Shown: piece by piece, positions 9,966 through 54,326 of the stretch | Layout: every line of letters starts with the position of its first letter | How positions within the stretch are numbered: position 1 is the stretch's first letter | Source of the DNA: Candidatus Poseidoniaceae archaeon | Lineage (GTDB): Archaea > Thermoplasmatota > Poseidoniia > Poseidoniales > Poseidoniaceae | Length of the DNA: 64,000 nucleotides | Assembly: GCA_965662895.1 (NCBI GenBank) | Contig: CBFIJH010000005.1 | Location: 64,001 to 128,000, forward strand | Direction: 5' to 3' | The notes under the pieces: generated by a model | The model's database searches: none | What the model saw: only the letters and a program-made list of their open reading frames with translations | Told to the model about the DNA's origin: nothing | Made by a program: the position numbers and the translations under genes

Positions 9966-9969
9966 TGCT

Positions 9970-12015: not shown

Positions 12016-12018
12016 TCC

Positions 12019-28230: not shown

Positions 28231-28271
28231 ATCGAATCCTTGCATCCATAGGTCAAAAAAACCTGCATGAA

Positions 28272-28312
28272 TTCTGTCAATCAACAGAAGGACAACATCA
28301 AATGCGATGTTG
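28272..28312. promoter_or_regulatory. Two adjacent inverted repeats in the uvrC / STAND divergent promoter
   Basis: TTCTGT-N6-ACAGAA (28272-28289) and CAACATC-N6-GATGTTG (28293-28312). Confidence 0.4.
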
Positions 28313-28334
28313 CCAAGGTAGGGTATGAGTTCCG

Positions 28335-39057: not shown

Positions 39058-39828
39058 TCACTGTTCTGGTAACGTACCGTTCAAACTGTCAGGATTGTCC
39101 TCAAGTGGACCCCATTCTGTCTTGGTTCGATGGAGGCCAAATCGCTTTGCATAGAGGAATCTAAGGTTCTTCCAGCCATCACCCCACGTGTGGATTTCAG
39201 CATCTCCAACGCGTTCTCGGTATGGGACGGAAATTTCGATGGCTTTCTTACGACCAAGATGCTTGCGTGCAAGGATCTTGATCTCTTCTGAAAGTGGCAT
39301 TCCATCGTTGGTTGGGCGCATCTTTGGATTCTCAAAAATCGACTTGCGGAACACCCACATCCCCGATTGCGAATCCTTAATTCCATAACCGAAGAGGAGT
39401 CGAGCATTGAATGAGAGAGCCCAATTTCCAAATCCGTGGAGACCAGACATGGATCCGTCTTCTGCCATGCTCAGGCGATCACACGTGATGAAATCGAGGT
39501 CATCATCCAAAAGTCGCTTGACCAATTCAGGAATCAATTCTGCAGGATAGGTACAGTCTGCATCCATTGTGACAATGATGTCGTTCGATGCAACAACGAA
39601 ACCCGTACGGTATGCCCGGCCGTAACCCTTCCGTGGTTCAAGGTGAACGCGAACATCTTTTTCAAGGGCGATTTCTCGAGTACGATCGGTCGATGAACCA
39701 TCGACAATCATGATTTCGAGGGATTCGCACCATCCGCGCGGAATTGCATCAACGGTCGCACCAAGTGCTTCCTCTTCATTTCGAGTGGGAAGAAGAACCG
39801 TCACAGATACTGGTAGTACCTCGTCCAT
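39058..39828 (-). CDS. Glycosyltransferase family 2 (Dol-P-mannose synthase-like)
   Basis: LLPTRNEE, VDG.STD.T, GYG.A, MDADCTYP, D.QSGM, E.SVPY..RVG. Confidence 0.9.
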   Translation of the reverse strand: MDEVLPVSVTVLLPTRNEEEALGATVDAIPRGWCESLEIMIVDGSSTDRTREIALEKDVRVHLEPRKGYGRAYRTGFVVASNDIIVTMDADCTYPAELIPELVKRLLDDDLDFITCDRLSMAEDGSMSGLHGFGNWALSFNARLLFGYGIKDSQSGMWVFRKSIFENPKMRPTNDGMPLSEEIKILARKHLGRKKAIEISVPYRERVGDAEIHTWGDGWKNLRFLYAKRFGLHRTKTEWGPLEDNPDSLNGTLPEQ

Positions 39829-39881
39829 GTTGTGACGATAGGCAATGAGCGTTTCAATGCATTGCCTCAACGGTCAAACGA

Positions 39882-40874
39882 TTACGACCATCGAGCACGT
39901 AGGCGACGGAGTGAAAGTTTCACAGCAAGACGAATCTTTCTCCATTTTGACAAGGAAGGACGCTTGCTAAACACGTCGCCTGAGCGGCGCACGATCTCGT
40001 GGAAAATAGCATCATAGGCTTCACACATCAGTTGTGGTTGCAATTGGGATTTTGAATCAAGATATTCAAACAAATGCTGTGCTGATTCTTGGTGTCGTCG
40101 AACGATTTCGATGTATTCTTGAACAAAAGACTTCCACCGATGGTTGGTTCCAAATTCAGTATTCCCGAGCTCTGAAATATCGATATTGTATTCGCCTAAT
40201 GCATTGATTGGAAGGTAAATTCGACCGCTTCGATAATCTTCAGAAACGTCACGAAGGATGTTGATGAGTTGCAATTGGATGCCCATATCGATGGCGTGAA
40301 TTCTCCCTCCGGCATCCTCACATCCATAAATTTCGATGAGAACCAAACCTACTGCAGAAGCCACCTTGTAACAGTATGCACGGACCTCGTCCCAAGTTTT
40401 GTGACGAACTTCGAACAGATCGTCTTCCATTCCTTCGATAATGGTTTCAAAATCAGAAAGTCGAACAGGGAAATGCTTGAACACTTCGTTGATGGCGATG
40501 AAAATGGCTTCATCTTGCGTTGCTGATTCATCACCTGCGAACAATCGTGTGAGTCGCTCCTTGGCATCAACAAGGGCCATCAATCGGTATCGGTGCTCCT
40601 CAGGAGGGTTGTTCATTGCCGTTTGGTGGATGCTCTGGAGAAGTCCGTCTCGCTCATCCACGAGTTTGTTGAGGGCTTCGGATTCTCGAACAACTGGTCG
40701 AGAGTCTCCATCAGCAATATCATCGAGGTAACGGCACAGTGCGTAGACCGCATGAACTGCACGACGTTTCTTGAAGGGCAGTGCTGAGAAACTAGCAAAA
40801 AATGTGGATGACGCACGACGACAAATTTCTTCACATTCAAGAAAAGCCTCTTCAATGGAAGTTGTTTTGTTCAT
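39882..40874 (-). CDS. crtB: Phytoene/squalene synthase family protein
   Basis: YALCRYLDDIAD, GMEDDL, YCY.VAS.VG, G..LQL.NILRDV.ED...GRIYLP. Confidence 0.9.
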   Translation of the reverse strand: MNKTTSIEEAFLECEEICRRASSTFFASFSALPFKKRRAVHAVYALCRYLDDIADGDSRPVVRESEALNKLVDERDGLLQSIHQTAMNNPPEEHRYRLMALVDAKERLTRLFAGDESATQDEAIFIAINEVFKHFPVRLSDFETIIEGMEDDLFEVRHKTWDEVRAYCYKVASAVGLVLIEIYGCEDAGGRIHAIDMGIQLQLINILRDVSEDYRSGRIYLPINALGEYNIDISELGNTEFGTNHRWKSFVQEYIEIVRRHQESAQHLFEYLDSKSQLQPQLMCEAYDAIFHEIVRRSGDVFSKRPSLSKWRKIRLAVKLSLRRLRARWS

Positions 40875-40896
40875 TTTTTCACCTCAATTCTATTGT

Positions 40897-41352
40897 TTAT
40901 GAATGCGTGTTGTTTTCCTTGTTCATCTGCATTGTAATGAAATGGATGGCGAGTCCTACTGGCATGAGCATAACGCCGAACAAAATTGCCACTTGCGCAG
41001 CAGTTTTGTTGATTTCTGTTTCAACACTTCGCTTCCAAATCCATCGCGTGACGATGATGTCACCAATCACAAAGTGCGTCCATGCAAGAACAGCACCATC
41101 GTCTGTGCCAAGGACTTCAGCAAGGCCCGAAACGAAACCGCTCAGGGTACCGTCCCCGATCATATCGCTGAGAGCACCGAGATTCATTGCAAGAACGATC
41201 AGATAAGCAATCAACGGTCCAAGGACAAACCATGGTCCATCCATCCATTTTTTCGTTCGTTCAGCATATGGTTGAAGGAGCATAAGCATCCAGAACGGAC
41301 CAACCCACATCGATGCTGCGAAGAAGGCGACCAGAAGCATTGTTTCAACCAT
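40897..41352 (-). CDS. ABA4-like (DUF4281) membrane protein
   Basis: PFW.LM...P....T, LAW.HF...D....W, ..P.GL; TAATG coupling to the upstream gene. Confidence 0.8.
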   Translation of the reverse strand: MVETMLLVAFFAASMWVGPFWMLMLLQPYAERTKKWMDGPWFVLGPLIAYLIVLAMNLGALSDMIGDGTLSGFVSGLAEVLGTDDGAVLAWTHFVIGDIIVTRWIWKRSVETEINKTAAQVAILFGVMLMPVGLAIHFITMQMNKENNTHS

Positions 41353-41915
41353 TAAATCACCTTCTCATATGCTTGTTCGATTTCGTCAATCGAGTTCTCG
41401 GTCGGATAATAGGTGTCACTTTCCCACTGGATGACGCCGTTTTGGTCGATGAGGAACAACGCAGGTGTTCCAGGAAGACCATAGTATTCAAAAATGGATT
41501 GACTCAAATCGGCTTGATCTTCGATTCGTTGGATTGAATCATCGTCTGTTGGCAAAACAATCGGCCATGGAGTGTAGTGGTCGCTTTCCGTGAAACCAAA
41601 TTCTTCAGCGACGTCCTCTTTGGTTTCAAATCGGAGGTACCGTTCAACAGAAACGATTTGCAAAGGTGGCTCCTGATTCATCCAATCGTTGTGATGTTCT
41701 CGCAAATCATCGGTCCAATCTTTGCAGCCAGTACATCCTACTCCGATGAAGAGCACGAGGACGGGCCCCTCGCTCAAGTTTTCTTTCATCGAATACATTG
41801 GTCCACCGTCTTCCTCCCGGTCGAGGGTTTCGACAGTAAAGACACGTCCGTCCTCAGGGGTCGGTTCAATGCAGCCTGCCAGGAGCAAAATGAGCACAAG
41901 GGCAACGAAACGCAC
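41352..41915 (-). CDS. TlpA/thioredoxin-like lipoprotein
   Basis: Lipobox LAGC, CTGC, GTPALFLIDQNG. Confidence 0.8.
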   Translation of the reverse strand: MRFVALVLILLLAGCIEPTPEDGRVFTVETLDREEDGGPMYSMKENLSEGPVLVLFIGVGCTGCKDWTDDLREHHNDWMNQEPPLQIVSVERYLRFETKEDVAEEFGFTESDHYTPWPIVLPTDDDSIQRIEDQADLSQSIFEYYGLPGTPALFLIDQNGVIQWESDTYYPTENSIDEIEQAYEKVI

Positions 41916-41924
41916 GTTGCTCCC

Positions 41925-43532
41925 TCAAGCGTTGGTCGGCGTTCCTGCTTCTTTCGCAGTTGTCACCTTTCGTTGAGCTTTCCGTCCACGAGGCGAGCGG
42001 CGAATGCCTTCGAACCAAGTATCGACGCCGTTCCAATCCGGGTCAATTCCGAGGTCATCCAACACGAGTTTGCTGCTGATTCGAGCGCTCTCAAAGATGG
42101 TCGGTAGTCCACTGCCGGGATGTGTACCTCCACCGACAATGTAGAGGTTGTTTGCTTCTTCAAACCGGTTGTGCGGGCGTCGCCAGAGCATTTGTTTGAG
42201 GTCGTGTGTGAGGTTAAACACTGCACCGCGATAGATGTCAGATGCACCCCAGTCATCGGGTGTGATTACGGTCTCTGAAACGATGTGATCGCCAATATCA
42301 TCGTACCCAAGTTTTGCCAGTTGTTTGACAACAATTTCTCTGAAATCTGCTTTGATGTCATCCCAAACGATGCTCTCGTGCTGGTTTGGTACAGGTACGA
42401 GAACGTAAATCGTCGAGTGTCCCTCAGGAGCGAGCGAGTCATCGGTTATTGACGCATTTTGAACGTAGACGGATGGGTCGTCCCATGTCAAACGATGATT
42501 GGTGATATCTTTGAGATTCTTTTCGTACTCTGAGGATGCATAGATTTGATGATGTGGTAAATCGTATTGCTTGTCAACACCCAAGTAGAGCATAAAGGTT
42601 GAACAAGAATATCCTTTCTTTTCCAGTTTCTTATCGGACCATTTCTTGCGCTTCTCATTGGGGACGAGTGTTGTCATTGCATGAGCAAAATCTGCGTTGA
42701 CAACCACTCTGTCGGCCATTATTTCAGCGCCGTCAATCCGGACGCCTTTGACGGTTTTACCTTCATAGATGAGGGACTCAACCGGAGTGCTGAGTCGAAT
42801 ATTGACGCCCATTTCTTCCGCAATTTCAGCCATTCGAGCAGTGATGCTTCCTAGGCCTCCTTTGGCGTGGAAAATGCCGTGCTCGTACTCAAGGAAGGCG
42901 AGAATCGTAAACAGCGAAGGGGCATGGAACGGGCTCATTCCCAGGTACTTGGTTTGGAACGACATTGCGAGTCGAATGCGTTCATCATCGAAATGCTTAC
43001 TGAGATCTCCAGCAACGCTGGCCCAAGGCTTGAGGACAGAAGCCACCCGCATGGCTCGTCTCGAAAGAATGTCCAACGGACTTCGCCATGGAGTTTGCAA
43101 ACACTTCTTGCTGAGGTCAAGCTTTCTTCGGTTTTGTTTGACGTACTTTTTGAATCCTTCAGCGTTTTTGTCACCGGCAAGCTCTCGAATACGTTCTGTC
43201 ATTTCTTCGAGGTTGCTTGTCGCATCGATGTGGCCTCCAGCGCCAAAGACAAGCCTGTACATCGGGTCCAATGGCATCAAACCGAGTTCCTTGTGTGCGT
43301 CTCGACCAATTGCTTGGAAGATCTCTTCGATAACTTCTGGATAGTGGAAGAAGGTTGGTCCACGGTCGAACGTGTATCCGTCCTTTGTGTACAATCTGGT
43401 GCGTCCACCGACGGCATCGGCTTTCTCGAGTACGGTCACGTTGACACCTGAATGGGCGAGGAGAAGTGCAGAAGCAAGACCGCCCGGTCCTGACCCTACG
43501 ATGATTGCGGTTGGTTTATTCTGAGTACTCAT
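41925..43532 (-). CDS. crtI: Phytoene desaturase family (CrtI/CrtN-like)
   Basis: GSGPGG FAD motif, VGGR, FD.GPT, FQTKYLGMSP, SCSTFMLYLG, YVLVPVP, GGGTHPGSGLP. Confidence 0.9.
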   Translation of the reverse strand: MSTQNKPTAIIVGSGPGGLASALLLAHSGVNVTVLEKADAVGGRTRLYTKDGYTFDRGPTFFHYPEVIEEIFQAIGRDAHKELGLMPLDPMYRLVFGAGGHIDATSNLEEMTERIRELAGDKNAEGFKKYVKQNRRKLDLSKKCLQTPWRSPLDILSRRAMRVASVLKPWASVAGDLSKHFDDERIRLAMSFQTKYLGMSPFHAPSLFTILAFLEYEHGIFHAKGGLGSITARMAEIAEEMGVNIRLSTPVESLIYEGKTVKGVRIDGAEIMADRVVVNADFAHAMTTLVPNEKRKKWSDKKLEKKGYSCSTFMLYLGVDKQYDLPHHQIYASSEYEKNLKDITNHRLTWDDPSVYVQNASITDDSLAPEGHSTIYVLVPVPNQHESIVWDDIKADFREIVVKQLAKLGYDDIGDHIVSETVITPDDWGASDIYRGAVFNLTHDLKQMLWRRPHNRFEEANNLYIVGGGTHPGSGLPTIFESARISSKLVLDDLGIDPDWNGVDTWFEGIRRSPRGRKAQRKVTTAKEAGTPTNA

Positions 43533-43554
43533 GAATCCACCAGTGAGAAACGGC

Positions 43555-43561
43555 TTATAAA
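43555..43561 (-). promoter_or_regulatory. Internal TATA box (TTTATAA) for the crtI sub-operon
   Basis: About 23 nt upstream of ATG 43532. Confidence 0.55.
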
Positions 43562-43577
43562 TCGACGTTTTGAACCA

Positions 43578-44867
43578 CTAGTCGGCTGGCTGTATCTCGC
43601 CTTCCCAGAACGTTTTCGTGATGGTTTTTTGCGTCCTGGAATCTTTTGAATACGGTAGTTCGACGATCGAAGCAAATTCATCGAGATAAGGCCCCATTGA
43701 TGAGATAAGATCGATGTCTGGATGCCCACGAAGAACCATTCCATCCATGTACATCAACGAACGGATGATTGGGAAGGCTTCCTCACCAAAGCGACAGCCA
43801 GCCAGGACAGCGATGCGCACCGTTTTCATCATCTGCTGTGTGAGACTAACCTCGCTGACGGATTTGCCGACAAATCCATCATAGATTTCGTGCATTTCAC
43901 GCATGTATCGCGCCTTCGCCTCACCAGTTGGAGGTGTGTCTGCCATGGTCAACATTGCTTCAAACGCACCCTCAAGTTCTCCCTTCGCAAGATAGTAGAA
44001 GAAGCCGAACAGCGCTGAACGTACACTTTCTGGAGCGTGAGAAATTGCACCAGTATCAATAAAGGTGAATTGCCCGTTTTCATCGACCATCGCATTTCCT
44101 GGGTGAAGGTCGCCGTGGAATGTCCCGATACCAAACATGAAAGCACCGTGGATGCGAAACAACTGCAACAAGTCGTCCCAGGATAGATTTCCTTTCGAAA
44201 GTCTAGATTCGAGAGTAGGGGCTTTGATGTGTTCCATGACCAAAACGTGTTGATTTGAGAGTTCTGGCCAAACTTTTGGAAAGTTCAACAAGGGCATGGG
44301 GAATTGGTGTTCGACCTCTTTGGCTTTCGATTGAAGCAACTCAGCACCTTGAATTTCGTTTCGCAAGTCAAGCTCTCGAAGTGTGTAATCCTCAACGTGC
44401 TGAAGCAAACCGACTGGATTGCCCACTTTTCGAAGTCGAGGATTCAAAAACAGTCCAATTCTAAGCCATCGGCGCATTCGAGCGACATCTTTGCGGAACG
44501 ATTTCTCAAAATCCGCCTTGATGATCTTCACCACCACTTGACTTCCGTCTTTGAGGACACCACGGTGTACCTGTCCGATGCTTGCTGCTGCAAAGGGTTC
44601 TTCTTCGAAGGACTCAAAGGCATCAAGGAATCCGGCAGGAGCTCGACTTCGAATCAGCGACATCGAATCCTCCTTCGGAATCGAATTTGCTCTCTGATAC
44701 AGCGATTGAAGTTGTCTGCACTTTTCTTCAGACAGTAGATCGGGACGGAGTGCGAAGATTTGAGTGAGTTTAACAGCAAGCAACCCCATCTTCTGTATTT
44801 TATCGAGGTCGGCAGGGCCGTCCTTCGTAATCATGCGAATAAAACGAACGAATGTCAGGAGGCGCAT
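43578..44867 (-). CDS. ABC1/UbiB (AarF) atypical kinase
   Basis: K..Q....RPD, FAAASIGQVH, VVVK, ELD...E, FHGDLHPGN, IDTG. Confidence 0.9.
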   Translation of the reverse strand: MRLLTFVRFIRMITKDGPADLDKIQKMGLLAVKLTQIFALRPDLLSEEKCRQLQSLYQRANSIPKEDSMSLIRSRAPAGFLDAFESFEEEPFAAASIGQVHRGVLKDGSQVVVKIIKADFEKSFRKDVARMRRWLRIGLFLNPRLRKVGNPVGLLQHVEDYTLRELDLRNEIQGAELLQSKAKEVEHQFPMPLLNFPKVWPELSNQHVLVMEHIKAPTLESRLSKGNLSWDDLLQLFRIHGAFMFGIGTFHGDLHPGNAMVDENGQFTFIDTGAISHAPESVRSALFGFFYYLAKGELEGAFEAMLTMADTPPTGEAKARYMREMHEIYDGFVGKSVSEVSLTQQMMKTVRIAVLAGCRFGEEAFPIIRSLMYMDGMVLRGHPDIDLISSMGPYLDEFASIVELPYSKDSRTQKTITKTFWEGEIQPAD

Positions 44868-44892
44868 AGTAAAAAAATCTCCTTTTCATTTA

Positions 44893-45714
44893 TCAATCGG
44901 CGTTTTTTTTCAGGAGTGCTTTGATAGGATTTGCAAAGAGAGCAGGTGTTGTTTTCACCCATTCATCAAATCCTTCACGTTGTTGCAAATCAACTTCCGA
45001 CATCTTGACACCGCTTACATAACGAAGGAGAAGTGTGAGGATAAGGGGACCAATGAGTACTGGAAGAGCGTCAAAACCCGAAACGATGACAGCAAAACCG
45101 CCAATCGACCACCACAAGATTGCTTCTCCCAAATGGTTCGGGTGACGAGTGACTGAGAACATTCCATCCGTTTTGAGGTGACCTGGGCCGTGCATAGCAC
45201 GATATTTTTTCAACTCCATGTCTGCTTTGTGTTCCAAGGATAAGCCAAGCAGGAAACCGAAAAGACAAGCCAAGGACAATGCAGTAGAAGTCACGGTCCA
45301 CTCAATGGATTCCGATTGTTCTGGAATGAGGGCGAAAATTGGAAGCGCAACCACAAGGAGGAAAACCGCTTGAAGCATGAATACCTGAAGGAAACTGATC
45401 CACCACCAATTGTTCCCAGCAACCTCGCGCATGCGAACATAGCGTGGATCTTCCCCACGATTCTTTGTTCGATAATGCAATACAACTGCAAGACGCAGTC
45501 CCCACAGGGTGACACATGCGAGGCAGAGTAGTGCAGCAAGATTCGTGGCATCGGTGAAGAGAAATCGAGTCCAAGCGATGAGGACAAAACCCATTCCCCA
45601 TAAGACGTCCATAACCGTAACATTGCCGGTTGATAGCGTCTTAATCCATGCAATTGTGACGTATGCGAGGACAACAAGAACGGTCAGCAAATTCAATCCA
45701 ATGTCCACCATCAT
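44893..45714 (-). CDS. DUF1295 / steroid 5-alpha-reductase-like membrane protein
   Basis: D..WG, WGLRL, GEDPRY, AD.EL, RHPN..GE...W, VSGV; ATGA overlap with the upstream gene. Confidence 0.9.
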   Translation of the reverse strand: MMVDIGLNLLTVLVVLAYVTIAWIKTLSTGNVTVMDVLWGMGFVLIAWTRFLFTDATNLAALLCLACVTLWGLRLAVVLHYRTKNRGEDPRYVRMREVAGNNWWWISFLQVFMLQAVFLLVVALPIFALIPEQSESIEWTVTSTALSLACLFGFLLGLSLEHKADMELKKYRAMHGPGHLKTDGMFSVTRHPNHLGEAILWWSIGGFAVIVSGFDALPVLIGPLILTLLLRYVSGVKMSEVDLQQREGFDEWVKTTPALFANPIKALLKKNAD

Positions 45715-47108
45715 GCAGACGGTTCCGCTGGTTGTTCTTCATTGTTCATGATGATATGGTAGCGCCAGAGGTCTTCTGGCTCACCGGTTCCATCGTATCT
45801 TCGGACGTTGACGTTTCCATCTTTCGGGAATCGAGTCATCAAGGCTCCTTCGATGATACCATCATCAAGTTCCCACATGGGTAGTACGTCTGGATCTTCG
45901 CTTGGAGGATGGTCGAGTCCAACCTGCACATGGAAGACCGGATCGATACCGTATTCAAGCCGACCAAGTCCAGCAAATTCCCACCAATCCATCATTTCAT
46001 CGAGGAATTCGACGTGATTTTCGATTGAACGGAGTGAGAAAGCCAACTCGTGTCCGACACGATTTCCGACTTGACGCAACATTCGAGCCAAGTCAATACC
46101 GAGGATTTTCAAATTTGATAATCTGCCCTTCGTAAGCTCCTGCCGTGCTTGGTTGACTTCCGTTCCAGCTGCGAGGAAGGCATCTGGGTCGAATGGTGTG
46201 TCGTGTTCGGGAAGGTCGTCAACGCCGAGGGCACCGACTAGGGAATCGAGGAAGGAACCCTCGCCGATTGTCAGTCGAAGTGGGTCATGGATTCTCCCTT
46301 TCGAAAATCGGGCTTCTGCGACTTCAAACTGTACTGCGTCTTCCCAGATTGTATCGATTAGATTCTCTTGTGCTTTAGCGAAAGGTTCGCTTTCGATGAC
46401 GAGTGCAGCGTCTTCTTTTCCACGTCCAACTGGATTTTCTTCGATGTTGAGGAACTGAACAACGTGTGTACAATCCTGGAGGAATCCTTGGGAATCAAGG
46501 TCATCTGAATGTTTGATTTCAATTGAATCATGAAGTTTCTGGAAGAAACGTGTTGTTCGGCGATCAAGTTGGGCAATGACCTGGACCACAACACCCTTTT
46601 CAGCAACTGAATTGATGGTTTCTAGGGCTTCACTTCTGCAGAGGTGAAGAATACCGTACCGTCCGAGGAGTAGGACGAGCCGTTCTTCAGCATCCTCTGC
46701 CATTCGCTCAAGCCTGCGGTAAATGTGGCTTCGTTCTTTGAGAACTGCGAATCGTGGTTCATCACGCTGGCGGCGGTTCGCCTCGTAGGAAGCATTTGCT
46801 TCCGTGATGCCTTTGGAGAGCTCATTGAATCCTTCTTCGAGGTTATCCAGTTGCCTGCGGCGCATCTCAATAATGTGCTGCAACGCTTCATCAACACGCA
46901 AGCTTGAAAACAACATCGGCCGGTCAGCAGTTGCTGTAACGATACCCATTTCTTGGAGCCTTGAGAGGCTGTTGTACGCATCCAGTCGCGTTGTTTGCAA
47001 TTCCTTTGCGAGTTCGCTTGCACGCATGTTTGGATTGTTGCCAAGCACCATGATTGAGCGTACTTCTCGTTCAGTGAGACCAGCTTCGTTCAGAAGGCTG
47101 TCCCACAT
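45711..47108 (-). CDS. TrmB-family transcriptional regulator with an extra C-terminal V4R-like domain
   Basis: GLTERE...ASELAK....R.DAY..L..L...G.V HTH; central effector domain; tail L..VG..VG, WW..AGLG, GIIEG. Confidence 0.75.
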   Translation of the reverse strand: MWDSLLNEAGLTEREVRSIMVLGNNPNMRASELAKELQTTRLDAYNSLSRLQEMGIVTATADRPMLFSSLRVDEALQHIIEMRRRQLDNLEEGFNELSKGITEANASYEANRRQRDEPRFAVLKERSHIYRRLERMAEDAEERLVLLLGRYGILHLCRSEALETINSVAEKGVVVQVIAQLDRRTTRFFQKLHDSIEIKHSDDLDSQGFLQDCTHVVQFLNIEENPVGRGKEDAALVIESEPFAKAQENLIDTIWEDAVQFEVAEARFSKGRIHDPLRLTIGEGSFLDSLVGALGVDDLPEHDTPFDPDAFLAAGTEVNQARQELTKGRLSNLKILGIDLARMLRQVGNRVGHELAFSLRSIENHVEFLDEMMDWWEFAGLGRLEYGIDPVFHVQVGLDHPPSEDPDVLPMWELDDGIIEGALMTRFPKDGNVNVRRYDGTGEPEDLWRYHIIMNNEEQPAEPSA

Positions 47109-47632
47109 TAGTCGGATCCCCCAGTGACGGATGAGAGGCTCTTGAGGATTCGAGCAACGTGTCGGCGTGGACGGAACAACCAATCGTATACATGGTGGAT
47201 TCGATTGTCAGGCCCAATCAAGAAACTGGATTTGGCAGGAAACATTCCGAGATGGACTGGAACCAGGAATTTGTCTGCGACTTCCCTTTCCGGATCGGCA
47301 AGAAGTGGAAACGGAAGTCCACCAATTTCTTTCTTGAACTTGGCATGCGATTCGCTTGTTCCTTCCCCAATTCCAACGACTTTGCATCCTGCTGAGACGA
47401 ACAAATCGTGTTGTTCCTTGAAGGTGAGACAGCCTCGCTTGCACGTCGGTGACCCATCCTTCGCATAGAAGAACAAAATTCGCCATGAATCATTCAGCGA
47501 TTTGCTGTCAAAAACGTTGCCTACGTCATCAGTAAGCGTGAATTCAGGTGCGAGTTCTCCAATCAAATCTTTGCTCACTCGCTTCGCCTCATTGTGGGTG
47601 AGGCGCTCTGCTGTCAATATGACTTCCCCCAT
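47108..47632 (-). CDS. Atypical BCP/PrxQ-like peroxiredoxin
   Basis: G.LAPEF.L, FFYAKDGSPTCKRGC, SH.KF, LPFPLLADP, SFLIGPD; TAATG overlap with the regulator. Confidence 0.8.
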   Translation of the reverse strand: MGEVILTAERLTHNEAKRVSKDLIGELAPEFTLTDDVGNVFDSKSLNDSWRILFFYAKDGSPTCKRGCLTFKEQHDLFVSAGCKVVGIGEGTSESHAKFKKEIGGLPFPLLADPEREVADKFLVPVHLGMFPAKSSFLIGPDNRIHHVYDWLFRPRRHVARILKSLSSVTGGSD

Positions 47633-47643
47633 GTGCATCACCC

Positions 47644-48255
47644 TCAGATTGGCAGAATGTGACGCATTCGCAACGCTTTTGTTCGCAGATAATTTTTGTT
47701 TTCTGAGCAAAATCCTGCTTTGTGAGATACACGGTCGACAACCGATATGCCGTGCTGTTCGAGTTGCTCGACCTTGTCCGGGTTGTTGGTCATGAGACGA
47801 ACGCTGTCATATCCTATATCAGTGAGGATGTGGGCTGCGATTGTGTAGTCACGGCCATCGGCGGGTAAATTGAGCGCAAGATTAGCATCGAGTGTGTCAA
47901 GCCCACGGTCTTGTAGGTTGTAGGCCTGCATCTTTGCAAATAGTCCAATGCCGCGACCTTCCTGGCGGAGGTAAAGAACGATGCCACGTCCTTCTTTTTG
48001 GATGGTCTTTAATGCACGTTGCAACTGTGGTCCACAATCGCATCGAAGACTTCCAAGAGCGTCTCCAGTTAGGCATTCTGAGTGGATGCGGACAAGAGGG
48101 GGGGTTTGATCGTTCATGTCGCCGTGATAGATGGCTGCGTGTTCGGAGCCATCTTTCGGGTCGATGTATGATCGTATGCGGAACTCACCATACTTCGTGG
48201 GGAGTTTTGCGTCAGCAGGAACTGCCGTAAACTTCTGGTTAGGATTTACCTTCAT
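47644..48255 (-). CDS. ribA: GTP cyclohydrolase II
   Basis: LPT.YG.F, RIHSECLTGD.LGS.RCDCG.QL, YLRQEGRGIGL, LMTNNP.K, N..YL.TK...M.H. Confidence 0.95.
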   Translation of the reverse strand: MKVNPNQKFTAVPADAKLPTKYGEFRIRSYIDPKDGSEHAAIYHGDMNDQTPPLVRIHSECLTGDALGSLRCDCGPQLQRALKTIQKEGRGIVLYLRQEGRGIGLFAKMQAYNLQDRGLDTLDANLALNLPADGRDYTIAAHILTDIGYDSVRLMTNNPDKVEQLEQHGISVVDRVSHKAGFCSENKNYLRTKALRMRHILPI

Positions 48256-48264
48256 GTTTTACTT

Positions 48265-48285
48265 CAACGACGTTGTAGGTATAAA
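48265..48285 (-). promoter_or_regulatory. TATA box (TTTATA, 48285-48280) and downstream palindrome CAACG-A-CGTTG (48265-48275) of the ribA-led operon
   Basis: TATA is 25 nt before ATG 48255; the palindrome sits between TATA and the start. Confidence 0.5.
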
Positions 48286-48362
48286 GGACTGTTTCTGAAC
48301 AAGCCTGTTTGTGCTAATTTGTTAAACGGTCCTTCAAATACCTGTTGTGGATTATTCGGATT

Positions 48363-48860
48363 ATGACTGGCGACTTCGATGTAGGCGTGGCTGCTGCGGT
48401 CACCAACGATTCCGGCATCCTACTGGTCAAAGAATCCAAGGGCCCCTACGCCGGGTTCTGGGGCTTGCCAAAAGGATACGTCGAGCCGAACGAATCGATC
48501 GAATCAGCCGTACTACGGGAACTCAAAGAGGAAACGCACCTCGACGGGAAAATCTCAGGATTCCTTGGCTTAAGAACGACCAAGACAAACAAAGGCGTTG
48601 GTTTGTTTCTCTGCTACAAAATCGAACCAACGAGCACGGAAATCCGACCACAACAGGATGAGATATCCGATGTGAAGTTTTTCAATCTTGAATCCTTTGA
48701 CCAACTCGAATGGGTTTCTGCAGCAATGCGAGGGTTTGCTGAAGTAGCACTCAAAGACACATCGCTCCCCCTTGTCGACCTGAGCCATGAATCAAAGCGC
48801 CCGTATCATCTCGTATTCAGCGATGGGCGTGCAACACTTTTGGATGAGGTGATTCAATGA
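48363..48860 (+). CDS. NUDIX hydrolase
   Basis: Nudix box G.VEPNES...AVLRELKEET. Confidence 0.9.
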   Translation: MTGDFDVGVAAAVTNDSGILLVKESKGPYAGFWGLPKGYVEPNESIESAVLRELKEETHLDGKISGFLGLRTTKTNKGVGLFLCYKIEPTSTEIRPQQDEISDVKFFNLESFDQLEWVSAAMRGFAEVALKDTSLPLVDLSHESKRPYHLVFSDGRATLLDEVIQ

Positions 48861-50347
48861 TTGACGTTCGTCGGATTGATGCCAATGATAAGCCTCTCAA
48901 TCCCGAAGGGACCCATATTGTCTATTGGATGACCAGTGCACGACGGGCACGATGGAATCATGCCCTCGATCACGCCATCGAACTTGCCAATGAACACAAT
49001 GTTCCACTCCTAGTCGTCGAATGTCTGGCGCTTGGGCACCGATGGGCAAACGATCGCATACACACCTTCGTTTTGCAGGGAATGATTGACAACAGAAAGC
49101 TGTTCGAATCGAGTGCTGTAACGTATGTCCCTTACGTCGAGACCAAGAAAGCCCAAGCCGGAGGTCTACTGCAATCCTTCTCCGAAGATGCAGTCGCCGT
49201 CGTCATCGACTATTTCCCGACCTACATGCCCCGCGATGTTGCCCAGCGAGCCAAGGATTTAGCCAAATGCTCGGTCCAATGCATCGACAGCAACGGAATC
49301 GTTCCTCTGGCGGCTCCTCAACGCTCTTTCTCAACGGCACATTCCTTCCGCCGATACATCCACAAGAATGTCCTCAACTACATCGCAAGTCCGCCACACT
49401 CCGAACCTCTCAAGCACCTGAAGGATGTACCTAACGGTACGAACATCGTTAAGGAATGCTTTGAGCGCGTCGATGTTCCCTTAACACCGCTCGAGTTTAT
49501 TTGGAGAGTTTCAGAAGCCTCACGAGAAGGACGAGAAGCCCTCGCTGTATTGGACATCGATCACGAAGTTCCACCAGTCGACGAACGACGTGGAGGCTCG
49601 GTTACAGCTCGTACAGAACTCAAGAAATTCATCGAGCAGAAACTTGAATCGTATCACGTTGATCGTAATCACCCGGAGCGTTCTGGAGGAAGTGGCTTGT
49701 CTCCATGGCTCCACTATGGTCACATTTCGACGTTCGAAATCATCCATGAAGTGCTCGATTCACAGGGTTGGAATCCAATGAAAATCACACCACCGCACAA
49801 CGGTCGTCGGGCCGGTTGGTGGGGTATGAGCGAAGGTGCTGAAGCCTTTTTGGACCAGGTCATCACATGGAGAGAACTTGGATTTGTTTACTGTCATGAA
49901 CATCCGGATCACACCGCTTACGGCACGCTTCCAGAATGGGCCAAAGCCACGCTTGAGGAACACGAGAATGACGAACGGCCCTACATCTACACCTTCGAGC
50001 AGTTGGAACGTGGTGAAACGCATGACCCGTTGTGGAATGCAGCACAAATTCAACTTCGCAAAGATGGAATCATTCACAACTACCTCCGAATGCTATGGGG
50101 TAAGAAGGTGTTGGAATGGTGTCCCGATCCGGAAACTGCATGCAAGTGGTTGATTCGTCTCAATGATCGCTGGGCCCTCGACGGACGAGATCCGAACTCC
50201 TACACTGGCATCTTCTGGATTTTCGGTCGCTTCGACCGAGGATGGTTCGAACGCTCCGTCTTTGGAAAGGTACGGTACATGACATCCGCATCAACCCAAC
50301 GTAAGTTCAAAACTGAGGATTATATACGAAAATACGCGGATTCTTAA
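48857..50347 (+). CDS. phr: Class II-type deoxyribodipyrimidine (CPD) photolyase
   Basis: VYWM..ARR..WN.AL, SGLSPWLHYGHIS, WREL, THD.LWNAAQ, HNYLRMLWGKKVLEW, LND...LDGRDPNSY, R.VFGKVRYM. Confidence 0.9.
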   Translation: MIDVRRIDANDKPLNPEGTHIVYWMTSARRARWNHALDHAIELANEHNVPLLVVECLALGHRWANDRIHTFVLQGMIDNRKLFESSAVTYVPYVETKKAQAGGLLQSFSEDAVAVVIDYFPTYMPRDVAQRAKDLAKCSVQCIDSNGIVPLAAPQRSFSTAHSFRRYIHKNVLNYIASPPHSEPLKHLKDVPNGTNIVKECFERVDVPLTPLEFIWRVSEASREGREALAVLDIDHEVPPVDERRGGSVTARTELKKFIEQKLESYHVDRNHPERSGGSGLSPWLHYGHISTFEIIHEVLDSQGWNPMKITPPHNGRRAGWWGMSEGAEAFLDQVITWRELGFVYCHEHPDHTAYGTLPEWAKATLEEHENDERPYIYTFEQLERGETHDPLWNAAQIQLRKDGIIHNYLRMLWGKKVLEWCPDPETACKWLIRLNDRWALDGRDPNSYTGIFWIFGRFDRGWFERSVFGKVRYMTSASTQRKFKTEDYIRKYADS

Positions 50348-50356
50348 CATTAGGAG

Positions 50357-51754
50357 ATGCGTATGCCGATTTTTGAACACACCGCAACCTTTCCATTTTC
50401 TCGTCAAACCGTCTGGGATTGGCATGCTCGACCCGGAGCTGTTCGCCGCATCATGCCGGATTGGGAAGGAATCCGTCCTGTTGAAGTCGGTGGAATTACC
50501 GATGGAGCCATCACCGAATTTCGAATGAAAATTGGTATTGTGCCACAACGATGGGTGGCAAAACATCACGGTTACATGGAAGGCGAACAATTCTGTGATG
50601 ATATGGTGAAGGGTCCTTTCGGGCGCTGGAATCATGTCCACAAATTCGTTGAGAACAACGAAAATGAAATGCAAATTCACGACCGTATCGATTGGAAATT
50701 ACCGTTTCATTTCTTTACCCGAATTGGTGCTCCAATCATGGTCATGCCCCGTGTCAATCAAATGTTCAAGCATCGTTCGCGACGCATTCTTGCGGATTTA
50801 AATCGCCAACAGATGTTCAAAGATGCACCACGAAAAAGAATTCTCATTACTGGCTCGACAGGTCTCATTGGAACACAACTAGGGGCATTTCTTGAGACCG
50901 ACGGTCATGATGTCCATCGACTCTTGCGGCCGAGTACACGACTCCACGCCGATCAGGATTCAACAAAGGTTGTCAAATGGAACGATCGAACCGGAGAAGT
51001 TACGCAAGGTTCGCTTGAAGACTTCGACGTCGTGATTCACCTTGCCGGTGCTGGAATTGGGGAGAAACGCTGGAGTAAGAAACGAAAGAAACTCATTTCT
51101 GAAAGTCGCGAAATCCCAACACGTCATCTTTCCAATGCTTTGGCGGAACTAAAATCACCTCCATCGCTGTTCATTTGTGCTTCCGCAGTTGGGTTTTACG
51201 ACAATCGAGGCGATGAAGACCTTGACGAAAACAGTAGCATCGGCGAAGGCTTCCTCGCTCGGATTTGTAAGAAGTGGGAAGATGCCACTGAACCTGCTGT
51301 GAATGCTGGCATCCGGACAATTTTGATGCGAACTGGGATCGTTACCACGGCGGCAGGTGGTATGCTTCAACAGATTCTCTTGCCTGCAAAATTCGGCGCT
51401 TTGGGTCCCATAGGTGGCGGTCGCCAATGGCAATCATGGATTTCTTTGGACGACCAAATCTATGCAATTCATTTCCTTATGAACCATGAAACTGCAAGTG
51501 GAGTTATCAATCTCACTGCTCCAAACCCGGTCACACAGAAACAATTTGCAAAGACACTTGGGAAGGTTTTACGACGTCCAGCATTTGCTCCAGCACCTGG
51601 ATTTGTCATGAAAATTCTCTTTGGTGAGATGGGGAAATCGCTTATTCTGGATGGGCAAAAAGTCCATCCGAAGCGACTGTTGAATTTGGGATACAAATTT
51701 GAACATGAAACGCTCGAACCAGCGCTTCGTGATGCTTTAGGACGGTTCAATTAA
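50357..51754 (+). CDS. SRPBCC domain fused to a TIGR01777-family NAD-dependent oxidoreductase
   Basis: N-terminal WH.RPGA, F.D.M..GPF..W.H.H; then ITGSTGLIG, HLAGA.I, ASAVGFY, FLA..C..WE, G.G.QW.SWI, GQKV.P..L...GY.F. Confidence 0.9.
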   Translation: MRMPIFEHTATFPFSRQTVWDWHARPGAVRRIMPDWEGIRPVEVGGITDGAITEFRMKIGIVPQRWVAKHHGYMEGEQFCDDMVKGPFGRWNHVHKFVENNENEMQIHDRIDWKLPFHFFTRIGAPIMVMPRVNQMFKHRSRRILADLNRQQMFKDAPRKRILITGSTGLIGTQLGAFLETDGHDVHRLLRPSTRLHADQDSTKVVKWNDRTGEVTQGSLEDFDVVIHLAGAGIGEKRWSKKRKKLISESREIPTRHLSNALAELKSPPSLFICASAVGFYDNRGDEDLDENSSIGEGFLARICKKWEDATEPAVNAGIRTILMRTGIVTTAAGGMLQQILLPAKFGALGPIGGGRQWQSWISLDDQIYAIHFLMNHETASGVINLTAPNPVTQKQFAKTLGKVLRRPAFAPAPGFVMKILFGEMGKSLILDGQKVHPKRLLNLGYKFEHETLEPALRDALGRFN

Positions 51755-51779
51755 TCGTCGCTTTGTTCATAACCGGTAC

Positions 51780-54326
51780 ATGTCATGGGCGAACATGCTC
51801 GGGCGCAGCATTGCGATTGGCATTTTTGCCTTGCTCCTGCTCTCGATTGTACCATCCGTCCAAGCAGATGACAGTCAGGCATCATCAAATTTGCTCACTG
51901 ACGGCGTGTCATCAAACGGTTACGTTTGCGATCCAGACGGTTGTTCCCCGAACGATGGGACCGACTGGTGGCGGATTGATGCGTACAAGGGCGATATTGT
52001 GAGCATCACATTTTCTGGCTCGATGAGCAATGCTGCATGGTGGTGTCCTGGCGACGGTTGGGAAGGTGATTTTTCGATGCACGATGAGAGTGGCAGTCAA
52101 ATTGCTTCCATGGGTCGCAGCGATGACAATCCTTCCGGAACGCTTTCGAAAACCATGTCACAACCTGGCTCAGTTTACGTGAAAATCAAAGCGAAGAACT
52201 CATGGTGCAATGATGGATTTGATTACACGTTGCTCGCCTCCATCGATAAGACCGATCGAGACACAGATGAGGATGGCTTTGTTGACGCTGATGATGATTG
52301 CGATATCATCGTCGGGACATCCACCAACGATCGAAAAGGCTGCATTGATTCTGATTCTGATGGATGGTCCGACACAGATTCGGGATGGGATGTTCAAAAC
52401 GGTGCGGATGCGTTTGAATCCGATCCGACACAATGGAGAGACCGTGATTTTGATGGGTATGGTGACAACATACTCGGAAATCAACCCGATCACTGTCCCG
52501 ATAGCCGTGGTTACTCAACATCCGATCGGTACGGCTGCATTGATTCAGATGGTGACTCATACTCGGATGCGGACCCGGGAGGGTTGGACGGTTTGGAACC
52601 TTGGTTTGCCCATCCCGATGGCTTTGCTGATGCGTTCCCGTTCGAATCGACGCAATGGCACGATACAGACGGTGATGGCTACGGCGACAATTGGGAGGAT
52701 CCCATGTGGAATGAATCCCACACGGATTGGGGGATAGGCCAGTGGCTTGAAATTGCCAATCAACCGGATGCCTGTCCATTCATTACGGGTACTTCCTTCG
52801 CAGATCGATACGGTTGTCCCGATGCGGATGGTGACGCTTGGTCAGATCCAGGTGAAAATTGGACCTCCGTTGAAGGCGCAGATGCGTTCCCGCTCGAACC
52901 AACGCAATGGCGTGACAGAGATTTTGACGGGTATGGTGACAATCAGTCCGAAGGTGCACGACTCATCGATGATTTCCCAGACAACCCAACCCAATTCAGA
53001 GATTCGGATTTTGACGGATGGGGTGACAATCAAACGTATGGAGCTACCCAAATCGATGACTTCCCTATGGTTCCGAGTCAGTATCGTGATTCGGATGGTG
53101 ATGGCTACGGTGACAACATCAGCGGTTTCGAGGGTGACGTCTGCGTGAACTCAAATGCTGAAGAAGTCGAGAGTGGATGGATTTCAAGGTTTGACCGTTT
53201 GGGCTGTCGTGACGTTGACAGCGATGGTTATTCTGATCCAAGCGATGATTGGATTTCTCACCCACAAGGATTTGCCGACGCTTTCCCAAATGACGCTTCT
53301 CAGTGGTTCGACACCGACAATGATGGGTTTGGTGATAATACGGAGTATTTCGATGGACTTGCTTGGCGCCTCGCTTACAGAGGAGATGGCTGTCGAACAA
53401 CCTACGGGCTCTCAACTTTCGACCGATGGGGTTGTCCTGATTCGGATGAGGATGGGTGGTCCGATCCAACTCCGTACTGGCTTGCGAGTCCGGGTGGTAT
53501 GGGTGATGCGTGGCCTGAAGATTCTACGCAATGGCACGATCGAGATGGAGACGGTCGAGGAGACAATCCTTCCGGAACGAAAGCGGATGTGTGTCCTTCT
53601 GAGCCAGGAACCTCGGTCGGACCGAGTTCCGGTGGTGATAGATGGGGATGTCCGGACACCGATGGTGATGGATGGTCGAATCTTGGAGATGCTTTCATCC
53701 ATGAGCCAACGCAATGGCGGGATACGGATGGAGACGGATACGGGGATGAAGTTGATGGCAATGAACCAGATGCTTGCCCCACGATACGCGGGACCTCGAT
53801 TCTCGACCGGTTTGGTTGTCGTGACACCGACGGAGATGGTTGGTCTGACCCAACCGATGATTGGGATGCACACCCCTACGGCCGAGCGGATGCTTTTCCA
53901 ACCGAAGCGTTGCAATGGAAAGACACGGATGCAGATGGATTCGGTGATGTTCCACTTGGTGCTCTTCGGGATGACTGTCCAGAAGACTTCGGTACCTCTG
54001 TGCGCGATCTGCAAGGATGCGAAGACAACAACGGTGATGGTTGGTCGAACGAATACGGTGAGTGGAATGCTGCACTTGCCATCATGGGTGAAGATCCGGC
54101 TGCATCTTGGCTGACGTATCTCATCGTTGGAATTTCCTTCATTCTTGGCGCATCGGCGGCTCTTGTTGTTCGAACCATGCGTACAGAAGATGAGAAGATG
54201 CTGACGGAAGACTTGCTGGACATAGGGGGAATCGTGCAACAGTCATCTCCTGAACCAAATCCAACGCAACTTCCAGATTTGGCCATACCTCTACCACCGC
54301 CTCCGGGAGGTGACCATGATGCGTAA
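51780..54326 (+). CDS. Surface protein: PPC-like head, TSP3 repeat stalk, TM, Pro-rich tail
   Basis: Signal peptide; D.W.I....GD...I head; many D.D.DG.GDN / DAFP.E.TQW units; tail IPLPPPPGG. Confidence 0.85.
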   Translation: MSWANMLGRSIAIGIFALLLLSIVPSVQADDSQASSNLLTDGVSSNGYVCDPDGCSPNDGTDWWRIDAYKGDIVSITFSGSMSNAAWWCPGDGWEGDFSMHDESGSQIASMGRSDDNPSGTLSKTMSQPGSVYVKIKAKNSWCNDGFDYTLLASIDKTDRDTDEDGFVDADDDCDIIVGTSTNDRKGCIDSDSDGWSDTDSGWDVQNGADAFESDPTQWRDRDFDGYGDNILGNQPDHCPDSRGYSTSDRYGCIDSDGDSYSDADPGGLDGLEPWFAHPDGFADAFPFESTQWHDTDGDGYGDNWEDPMWNESHTDWGIGQWLEIANQPDACPFITGTSFADRYGCPDADGDAWSDPGENWTSVEGADAFPLEPTQWRDRDFDGYGDNQSEGARLIDDFPDNPTQFRDSDFDGWGDNQTYGATQIDDFPMVPSQYRDSDGDGYGDNISGFEGDVCVNSNAEEVESGWISRFDRLGCRDVDSDGYSDPSDDWISHPQGFADAFPNDASQWFDTDNDGFGDNTEYFDGLAWRLAYRGDGCRTTYGLSTFDRWGCPDSDEDGWSDPTPYWLASPGGMGDAWPEDSTQWHDRDGDGRGDNPSGTKADVCPSEPGTSVGPSSGGDRWGCPDTDGDGWSNLGDAFIHEPTQWRDTDGDGYGDEVDGNEPDACPTIRGTSILDRFGCRDTDGDGWSDPTDDWDAHPYGRADAFPTEALQWKDTDADGFGDVPLGALRDDCPEDFGTSVRDLQGCEDNNGDGWSNEYGEWNAALAIMGEDPAASWLTYLIVGISFILGASAALVVRTMRTEDEKMLTEDLLDIGGIVQQSSPEPNPTQLPDLAIPLPPPPGGDHDA

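Follow-up and report, generated by a model that had tools for sequence, protein, structure and literature searches.

A conserved gene island of the archaeal order Poseidoniales with a proposed role in photo-oxidative stress and probable self-regulation

The genome of a Poseidoniaceae archaeon (Marine Group II, MGII; 1.86 Mb in 26 contigs, 92% complete) carries, in the 64,000-nucleotide stretch analysed here (G000:C5:64001-128000, hereafter the window), an island of 12 open reading frames (ORFs) arranged in two divergent arms. We read it as a conserved photo-oxidative-stress island of the Poseidoniales that is probably controlled by a regulator encoded within it, and we put the probability of this reading at about 0.6. 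It draws on the identities and order of the genes, an operator-like repeat and the promoter geometry in the 107 bp between the arms, the domains of the candidate regulator, and the co-distribution of that regulator with rhodopsin.

Gene content and conservation of the island

The gene order of the two arms was confirmed by Pfam and NCBIfam scans. The features are given below outwards from the region that separates the arms, beginning with the left arm (from 48255 leftwards) and the gene that follows it.

47644-48255, minus strand: ribA, GTP cyclohydrolase II (PF00925, 228 bits; TIGR00505, 257 bits, above cut-off)
47108-47638, minus strand: prx, BCP/PrxQ-type peroxiredoxin (AhpC-TSA, 93.2 bits; PTCKRGC motif)
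45711-47108, minus strand: TrmB helix-turn-helix (HTH) protein of 465 aa, candidate island regulator (PF01978, 34 bits)
44893-45714, minus strand: DUF1295 membrane protein (PF06966, 170.5 bits)
43578-44867, minus strand: ABC1/UbiB atypical kinase (PF03109, 149.4 bits)
41925-43532, minus strand: crtI, phytoene desaturase family (TIGR02734, 485.6 bits against a cut-off of 238.1)
41352-41915, minus strand: thioredoxin-fold lipoprotein, TlpA/ResA-like (LAGC lipobox, CTGC motif)
40897-41352, minus strand: ABA4-like small membrane protein (PF14108, 75.7 bits)
39882-40874, minus strand: crtB, phytoene/squalene-synthase family (PF00494, SQS_PSY, 192.6 bits)
39058-39870, minus strand: GT2 glycosyltransferase (PF00535, 88.5 bits)
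48363-48860, plus strand: NUDIX hydrolase (PF00293, 75.9 bits)
48857-50347, plus strand: class II cyclobutane pyrimidine dimer (CPD) photolyase (TIGR00591, E 1.5e-110, residues 5-493)
50357-51754, plus strand: SRPBCC-like N-domain joined to a TIGR01777/DUF1731 short-chain dehydrogenase/reductase of the YfcH/SDR39U1 family (TIGR01777, 314 bits, above cut-off; DUF1731, 68 bits)

Neighbouring genes within the arms either overlap by 1-4 nt or are separated by 5, 9, 9, 22, 25 and 45 bp. The arms lie 107 bp apart with the NUDIX ATG at 48363 and 89 bp apart with the TTG at 48345; the ATG is probably the start, because the promoter geometry favours it. The original prediction, made from the letters of the window, had described 12 genes in this order with gaps of at most 45 bp and about 107 bp between the arms, and the ORF list and the Pfam and NCBIfam scans bear it out. 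The left arm may hold ten genes rather than nine, since the GT2 gene comes 11 bp after crtB. It directly follows crtB in the window's genus and lies farther downstream in other Poseidoniaceae.

Conservation was assessed in two sets of relatives. For the first, the regulator served as a probe to collect 20-kb stretches, on which the genes of the window were charted by tblastn; 26 loci had enough flank, representing 14 genera and both large families of the order. The second came from a scan of species genomes that yielded 343 relatives, of which the best 80, all Poseidoniaceae, were charted. The genes ribA, prx and that of the regulator are contiguous on one strand in 26/26 loci, with the peroxiredoxin always in the middle. 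Photolyase diverges from ribA in 25 of the 26, and the SRPBCC/TIGR01777 gene directly follows photolyase in 24 of 25, the remaining locus being cut by a contig end. Among the best 80 Poseidoniaceae loci the gene order is the same in every case (80/80) wherever the contig reaches, with three architectures. The gene order of the island is far from chance.

The other genes are less constant. ABC1 follows the regulator in 21/26 loci, NUDIX lies between ribA and photolyase in 14/26, and crtI is found in the arm in 14/26. The crtB gene is in the arm in nine of the 26 and elsewhere in the locus in seven more, and the ABA4-like gene is in the arm in four. At the island position, the DUF1295, TlpA-like and ABA4-like genes are found mainly in the window's genus, and DUF1295 there only. 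From the charts of 26 and 80 loci, the 12-gene form is therefore specific to one genus, while the conserved core consists of five genes, ribA-prx-regulator facing photolyase-SRPBCC/TIGR01777, with ABC1 and crtI as frequent additions. The originally predicted 12-gene island is thus real and conserved, but its full form belongs to one genus and it is only the five-gene core that is widespread (26 loci, 14 genera).

For several genes the family assignments need qualification. The photolyase scores 370.6 bits against TIGR00591, under the curated cut-off of 550, and aligns over its full length with the deoxyribodipyrimidine photolyases of PDB entries 8oet, 2xry and 3umv (E 7e-72 to 2e-59), which we take to be class II enzymes. 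The N-terminal domain of its downstream neighbour matches Polyketide_cyc at merely E 0.024, yet PDB entry 3oh8 spans both domains (residues 12-462). A second ribA, 58.5% identical to the island copy, is present at G000:C13:13422-14006, so the island ribA is best regarded as an extra flavin supply. The role in flavin supply that had been proposed for RibA thus keeps its gene identity, but the island copy is not the pathway's only entry. The putative crtB falls under every NCBIfam equivalog cut-off (HpnD, 191.9 against 278.6; CrtB, 151.6 against 550). It is probably a phytoene synthase, with its identity established at the level of the family, and it takes the name crtB because it neighbours crtI. 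Two further SQS_PSY genes form a tandem pair at G000:C8:72630-74952. In the TlpA-like protein, AhpC-TSA/Thioredoxin_2 and all other Pfam matches are under cut-off, and the label tlpA is reasonable but weak.

Several observations concern the arrangement of the locus in relatives. In L046 (11202-12863; G096:C20, Thalassarchaeaceae), the sole exception to the divergence of photolyase, a rhodopsin gene immediately precedes ribA in the same orientation and takes the place of the photolyase arm; it is 71% identical to the rhodopsin of the window's genome. Genus g6 (L020:16994-19998 and L048:16781-19896) has a separate crtB-crtI-thioredoxin-like-ABA4 cluster on the opposite strand, 6-9 kb from the regulator, and because g6 keeps these genes as a cluster of their own, the carotenoid block can be considered a movable module. 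The regulator, at 74-99% identity, together with island genes in unchanged order, was also encountered in L063, L086 and L095, from metagenome-assembled genomes (MAGs) titled as the bacteria Rhodobiaceae, Salipiger and Salinimicrobium; these are probably mis-binned contigs.

Around the island, a terminator-like hairpin is found at 51741-51759, at the end of the right arm; terminator-like sites numbered 20 against 14.1 expected. A sigma-70 promoter scan returned 12 sites against 12.4 expected and is uninformative for an archaeon. An ORF of 848 aa without a Pfam match (51780-54326) begins 25 bp past the right arm. It has internal repeats and many paralogues in the genome, resembles surface proteins of the lineage, and also follows the right arm in the charted Poseidoniaceae loci L026, L027, L032 and L033. 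Elsewhere in the window, uvrC (26503-28482) is located 20 kb upstream of the island, and near the window start another AhpC/TSA peroxiredoxin is encoded (2251-2793). A second, distant photolyase-like gene (30% identity) is located at G000:C1:211102-212412. A link to FO synthase was considered and set aside: two CofH-like genes of the radical S-adenosylmethionine type are under cut-off, and synthesis of 8-hydroxy-5-deazaflavin (8-HDF) was not established.

The shared control region and the candidate regulator

The region between the arms has the following features.

48256-48362: shared control region, 107 bp between the arms
48280-48285, minus strand: TATA box of the left arm
48289-48294: half-site CTGTTT
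48324-48329: half-site AAACGG
48333-48340: TATA-like TTCAAATA of the right arm

The centres of the TATA elements are 27.5 nt (left) and 26.5 nt (right) from the respective ATGs, and because both sit about 27 nt from a start codon, both transcripts are predicted to be leaderless. A conserved TTGTG block sits between the half-sites CTGTTT and AAACGG. A common plan was observed in 35 spacers, running from the left TATA through 3-5 nt, CTGTTT, a spacer, AAACAG (or AAACGG or AAACAC) and another 3-5 nt to the right TATA. The resulting inverted repeat, CTGTTT-N16-31-AAAC(A/G)G, is conserved across genera. The two hexamers fit at 11 or more of their 12 positions in 17 of the 35 loci, ten of the 35 being near-identical members of one genus; shuffled sequences did so 0.31 times on average and twice at most.

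Most genera have 16-18 nt between the half-sites; the window's genus has 29-31 nt, longer by about one helical turn. The first in-frame ATG lies 32-36 nt from the left half-site in 12/14 loci and 32-34 nt from the right one in 9/14. Among 28 distinct spacers of the window's genus, the half-sites and TATA boxes are invariant, and the footprint consists of conserved GGTATAAAGGACTGTTTC, TTGTG and TAAACGGTTCTTCAAATAC, with variable sequence between them, and in L020 the symmetry of the two arms reaches 15-16 nt (ACGGTGTTTGGAAAT ... ATTTCCAGAACAGCCGT). A strict composite pattern occurs at the island spacer in 13 of the 26 loci, with four matches elsewhere in approximately 530 kb. The full repeat is present once in the 1.86-Mb genome. 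A search of the genome for a second operator returned weak candidates only, and separate crt clusters of other genera were without the composite motif in the loci examined; because no second clear operator emerged, the term regulon covers the island locus only. One weak match, CTGTTT-N26-AAACGG with one TATA-like flank (G000:C8:9795-9846), precedes the gene of a polytopic membrane protein (9965-11335) and another membrane-protein ORF (11412-12176), and may be due to chance.

Rhodopsin, lycopene cyclase, Blh, CarH/LitR and RpoE-ChrR had been reported missing from the window by the original prediction. This holds among the 43 ORFs scanned with Pfam, where rhodopsin, lycopene cyclase, Blh, MerR/CarH and ECF sigma/ChrR were not detected; the regulators were not searched for in the remaining genome. 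An archaeal-type regulator had been postulated in their place. Such a protein exists, but instead of being absent from the island it is the very gene labelled trmB in that prediction, the third of the left arm. Its most likely start yields 465 aa, and residues 32-93 of the long ORF match PF01978 at 34 bits against a cut-off of 25.6, so a winged helix-turn-helix (wHTH) of the TrmB type is present. Homologues are labelled "TrmB / predicted hydrocarbon binding protein" at JGI, and its close homologues are assigned to Poseidonia sp., Poseidoniales or Poseidoniaceae.

An AlphaFold model built from 27 sequences (predicted local distance difference test, pLDDT, 76.5) divides the regulator into five parts:

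Residues 1-70: winged helix
Residues 72-114: long helix
Residues 119-270: alpha/beta domain
Between the alpha/beta domain and the C-domain: disordered linker
Residues 340-455: C-domain

In Foldseek searches, residues 1 to about 270 matched TrmBL2 (5bpd, E 4e-13) and TrmB (3qph, E 3e-9), and residues from about 119 to 270 matched proteins of the phospholipase D (PLD) fold, including nucleases. The model therefore has the structural plan of TrmB and TrmBL2, comprising a wHTH, a dimerisation helix and a PLD-like alpha/beta domain. The score against the equivalog of the sugar-sensing TrmB/TrmBL1 proteins (NF047392) is just 22.6 bits, compared with a cut-off of 500.

The C-terminal part points to another family. 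The V4R half of the NCBIfam model for MsvR (NF053755) aligns with residues 358-462 (E 3e-6), while the whole regulator reaches 27 bits against a cut-off of 220, its N-terminus being of the TrmB and not the ArsR type. Modelled alone (pLDDT 87.6), the C-domain gave weak Foldseek matches (E 4e-3 to 5e-2, template modelling score about 0.5) to BcsD, the phenol-sensing domain of PoxR, the V4R protein MJ1460, Bet3/TRAPP and H-NOX. A profile of the C-domain searched against 1.84 billion representative proteins (E up to 0.001) matched just 91 representatives, ten of which were examined. All six of those of about 245-270 aa fit the MsvR model over their full length, five above the curated cut-off and one 0.6 bit below it; all four of about 440-470 aa have an MsvR-like C-domain, and three of these also fit TrmB-family models. 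A profile of the whole regulator had only insignificant matches in PDB (E 0.015 or worse), and the ESM Atlas gave no usable match to the C-domain. As modelled, the C-domain probably has a V4R/Bet3 small-molecule-binding fold, and the regulator, judged by homology, is a TrmB/TrmBL2-like protein fused to a cysteine-less domain that is probably a V4R domain of the MsvR type.

The loss of cysteines was examined in two alignments. In the first (A3), four cysteine columns are common to four MsvR sequences and three Poseidoniales paralogues of the regulator, and all four are occupied by other residues in five island orthologues, except for a cysteine at the fourth column in L017. The second (A1), of 24 island orthologues, contains no invariant cysteine anywhere, the fourth-column cysteine recurring in L040 and L044. 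The island regulator thus lacks the conserved redox-sensing cysteines of the MsvR V4R domain. Two of the MsvR cysteine positions hold tryptophan in the window protein, which raised the idea of a tryptophan sensor; tryptophan is found at these positions in about 18 and about 13 of the 24 orthologues, and the idea was dropped as a main reading.

The paralogue shares 32-38% identity with the island regulator and is recognised by the Pfam V4R model at 47 bits. It was located at L021:9337-10707, L022:9315-10685, L025:9329-10720 and L024:9477-10781 (genomes G028, G026, G033 and G027, respectively), adjoining IscA-like Fe-S assembly, GCV_T/YgfZ-like, FdhD and molybdopterin-oxidoreductase genes. The window's own genome is without it. 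The paralogue is likely a thiol or Fe-S redox regulator of the Poseidoniales. Within the TrmB-V4R family, a thiol-type protein thus exists beside a cysteine-less one, and it is the cysteine-less one that is tied to the photolyase locus.

Rhodopsin, proposed mechanism and alternative explanations

Across 121 genomes of the order, each at least 85% complete, an orthologue of the regulator was found in 83 (one of them split by a stop codon) and rhodopsin in 76. Both are present in 75 genomes, the regulator alone in eight, rhodopsin alone in one (which has the paralogue), and neither in 37. The regulator therefore occurs in 75/76 rhodopsin-bearing and 8/45 rhodopsin-lacking genomes, and the two co-vary within genera g5, g7, g8, g10, g14 and g20. 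These counts support the tie to a sunlit lifestyle that had been suggested from the gene content. Photolyase has been described as encoded in all proteorhodopsin-bearing genera (Rinke et al., excerpts of PMC6461757). The ABA4-like gene is present in 67/76 rhodopsin-bearing and 12/45 rhodopsin-lacking genomes; as a universal partner of rhodopsin it was rejected, being missing from nine of the 76, including all three sampled rhodopsin-bearing genomes of g15, a genus in which it was not found at all.

The rhodopsin of the window's genome is encoded at G000:C2:111328-112380. In this 92% complete genome, Blh (PF15461, TIGR03753) was not found, with the PF15461 control finding nothing anywhere; neither CrtYcd (PF18916) nor an RPE65 oxygenase was found in it, and CrtY models gave weak Rossmann-level matches only. 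MGII has been listed among rhodopsin bearers without blh (excerpts of PMC7734400).

Photolyase and CrtI require flavin adenine dinucleotide (FAD), and flavin synthesis begins with GTP cyclohydrolase II. Hydroperoxides are reduced by peroxiredoxins of the BCP type, and carotenoids quench singlet oxygen. On account of these properties, the island enzymes fit a response to light. A DUF1295 gene of Chlamydomonas is induced by singlet oxygen (PMC4067076), and AhpC/TSA, photolyase and DUF1295 genes recur beside rhodopsin genes (bioRxiv 10.1101/2021.02.16.431466), as far as the excerpts of these sources go.

In the mechanism that we propose, the 107-bp region would drive two outward operons as leaderless transcripts, the genes of each arm being co-transcribed. 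The right operon would serve the repair of UV damage, with photolyase accompanied by the NUDIX protein and the SRPBCC/TIGR01777 oxidoreductase. In the left operon, the second GTP cyclohydrolase II would provide flavin for the FAD enzymes photolyase and CrtI, alongside the BCP peroxiredoxin, the regulator, the membrane and prenyl-lipid proteins (DUF1295, ABC1, TlpA-like and ABA4-like), and CrtI and CrtB for carotenoid. An oligomer of the regulator would bind the two inverted half-sites CTGTTT ... AAACAG. Because these lie 3-5 nt off the upstream edges of the TATA boxes, which is the position of the B-recognition element (BRE), both promoters could be controlled at once, and binding would block TFB and TBP at both, as has been proposed for MsvR (excerpts of PMC3729527). 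Repression that is lifted by a light-derived signal seems the most likely sign of regulation, with activation, as by OxsR (excerpts of PMC9426492), as the alternative. The signal would be a small hydrophobic molecule in the V4R pocket rather than a thiol switch, and its arrival would release the regulator, so that expression of the two arms, the regulator gene included, would rise together.

The co-distribution with rhodopsin could also be explained if the island were mainly a chromophore supply for proteorhodopsin, in which CrtB and CrtI would make lycopene, the accessory proteins (ABA4-like, DUF1295, ABC1, SRPBCC/TIGR01777 and TlpA-like) would replace the cyclase and the cleavage enzyme, and photoprotection would be secondary. 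This explanation, which overlaps with ours and which we consider rather unlikely, gains from the presence of rhodopsin, crtB and crtI in a genome where no Blh, CrtYcd or RPE65 match and only Rossmann-level CrtY matches were obtained, from the listing of MGII as rhodopsin bearers without blh (PMC7734400), from the regulator in 75 of the 76 rhodopsin genomes, and from the rhodopsin gene that in L046 immediately precedes ribA in the same orientation. It is at odds with an invariant five-gene core that contains no carotenoid gene, and with arms that include crtI in just 14/26 loci and crtB in 9/26. No accessory gene is universal in rhodopsin bearers, the ABA4-like gene being missing in 9/76 and DUF1295 standing here in one genus; furthermore, the genome has a completeness of 92%, the control for PF15461 gave no match anywhere, and retinal could come by uptake from the sea. 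A general peroxide or redox regulon without a specific light link, whose regulator would sense oxidants as MsvR and OxsR do, would attribute the rhodopsin association to oxygenated surface water. The peroxiredoxin that adjoins the regulator in every locus is in keeping with this, as are MsvR being the closest characterised relative of the sensor domain, OxsR being a thiol-based oxidative-stress regulator of the TrmB family (PMC9426492), and the existence of a cysteine-bearing paralogue in the same order. We nevertheless find such a regulon improbable. The conserved V4R cysteines are lost and the island regulator has no invariant cysteine, the constant partner operon encodes a photolyase, which requires light, and presence tracks rhodopsin inside genera. 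The cysteine-bearing paralogue, located elsewhere beside Fe-S assembly, YgfZ-like and molybdopterin genes, looks the better candidate for a redox sensor.

A conserved cluster whose arms are not jointly controlled by the TrmB-V4R protein, so that the repeat would reflect BRE/TATA architecture or the site of another factor and the protein would have its targets elsewhere, is in our judgement highly improbable. In its favour, the half-sites abut TATA where BRE lies, the motif is degenerate in several genera, and a second clear site was not found in the genome. The two sides of the repeat are, however, inverted copies of each other, with a symmetry that extends to 15-16 nt in some genera (L020) and is not required of a purine-rich BRE; from group to group, the spacing of the half-sites changes by about one helical turn; and the regulator gene is never parted from the promoter (26/26 and 80/80 loci).

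Several points weigh against the photo-oxidative-stress reading or parts of it. The co-distribution counts come from related, non-independent genomes and from incomplete MAGs. In excerpts of a study of dark-incubation metatranscriptomes (PMC9723583), a Thalassarchaeaceae MAG gave no significant signal for island genes. The dark-depleted "crtD" of that MAG is gene 41, another FAD oxidoreductase beside another crtB, and was rejected as an island gene, the island-type crtI being gene 661; genes 652 and 656, numbered near 661, were not significant either. The C-domain is unrecognised as V4R by Pfam (no matches), its fold matches are weak, and its assignment leans more on sequence homology than on fold scores. 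One in-frame stop interrupts five of the 83 regulator orthologues (TAG in G035, G088, G114 and G130, and TGA in G123); pseudogenes, errors of assembly or another cause may account for this. In g13, g14 and g15 the repeat is weak or different, its left side reading CTCGTC or CGTCGTT, and the simple pattern does not match. The strict composite pattern is absent in 9/26 loci, and four others match it only outside the spacer or, in L035, nowhere near it. The half-sites are at or next to the BRE position, so their conservation could partly be a basal promoter signal, and with centres 23-37 bp apart they are widely spaced for a simple dimer.

Relation to known systems and significance

Among the systems most similar to the proposed circuit is MsvR of M. 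thermautotrophicus and M. acetivorans (NF053755), a redox regulator with a V4R domain that is specific to methanogens, whose C-terminal sensor domain is homologous to that of the island regulator and which is likewise encoded at its presumed target locus with stress genes attached. MsvR binds inverted-repeat boxes next to the BRE/TATA of its own leaderless promoter, with TATA about 27 nt from the start as in the island (PMC3729527). The two proteins differ in their N-termini, TrmB/TrmBL2-like in the island regulator (wHTH, coiled coil, PLD-like) and ArsR-like in MsvR, and in length (465 versus approximately 250 aa). The V4R cysteines are replaced in the island regulator by W/R/S/K/H at one position and by W/C/S or others at another, and the rest are lost. 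The island's host is an aerobic photoheterotroph, and the presumed targets are photolyase, flavin and carotenoid genes rather than the F420H2 oxidase of MsvR.

The HTH and the first ~270 residues superpose on members of the TrmB family (TrmB, TrmBL1 and TrmBL2; PF01978), to which the island regulator adds a V4R-type domain; its site, CTGTTT-N16-31-AAACAG, and the genes around it are unrelated to sugar metabolism. OxsR of Haloferax volcanii is another TrmB-family winged helix and acts on stress genes by way of a motif located upstream of BRE/TATA (PMC9426492). It consists of a single wHTH that relies on Cys24, unlike the four-part island regulator with no invariant cysteine. The sigmaE-ChrR systems of Rhodobacter and Vibrio and CarH/LitR place photolyase, antioxidant, carotenoid and membrane-lipid genes under one self-controlling switch (excerpts of PMC5241685), as is proposed here; their regulators are unrelated, whereas the island has archaeal TATA/BRE promoters and includes ribA and SRPBCC/TIGR01777 in its core. 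Heliorhodopsin clusters of the Thermoprofundales (Thermoplasmatota) also bring carotenoid genes and phrB together in a proposed light-stress response. They are built on heliorhodopsin with CrtZ, CrtD, CruA, CrtU and UvsE, and no core of TrmB-V4R, ribA and peroxiredoxin is described in the excerpts of PMC9585477. A literature search, with subscription journals and bioRxiv supplements outside its coverage, found neither the island nor the TrmB-V4R regulator described. Compared with the known light-stress clusters, the type of regulator, the ribA-prx-regulator core and the double predicted leaderless promoter are different.

A bolder proposal, which we offer as speculative and regard as unlikely, is that the cysteine-less V4R domain is a receptor for a lipophilic product of light (an apocarotenoid, retinal, a prenyl lipid after oxidation or a photoproduct of flavin) and the regulator a new archaeal class of light or singlet-oxygen transcription factor, with the island also holding a Blh-independent route to retinal in which at least one of the ABA4-like, DUF1295, ABC1 and SRPBCC/TIGR01777 proteins would act on lycopene. 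Because the gene set tracks proteorhodopsin almost perfectly, the island is a natural place to seek the missing retinal pathway of rhodopsin bearers without blh.

The photo-oxidative-stress reading proposes a concrete control circuit of one regulator gene, one 107-bp DNA target with its half-sites and two operons. With it, light sensing in an uncultured and very abundant archaeon becomes open to direct tests, in vitro or in Haloferax, that require no culture of the organism. The joining of an MsvR-type sensor, stripped of its cysteines, to a TrmB scaffold shows how archaea refit their stress sensors to new signals.

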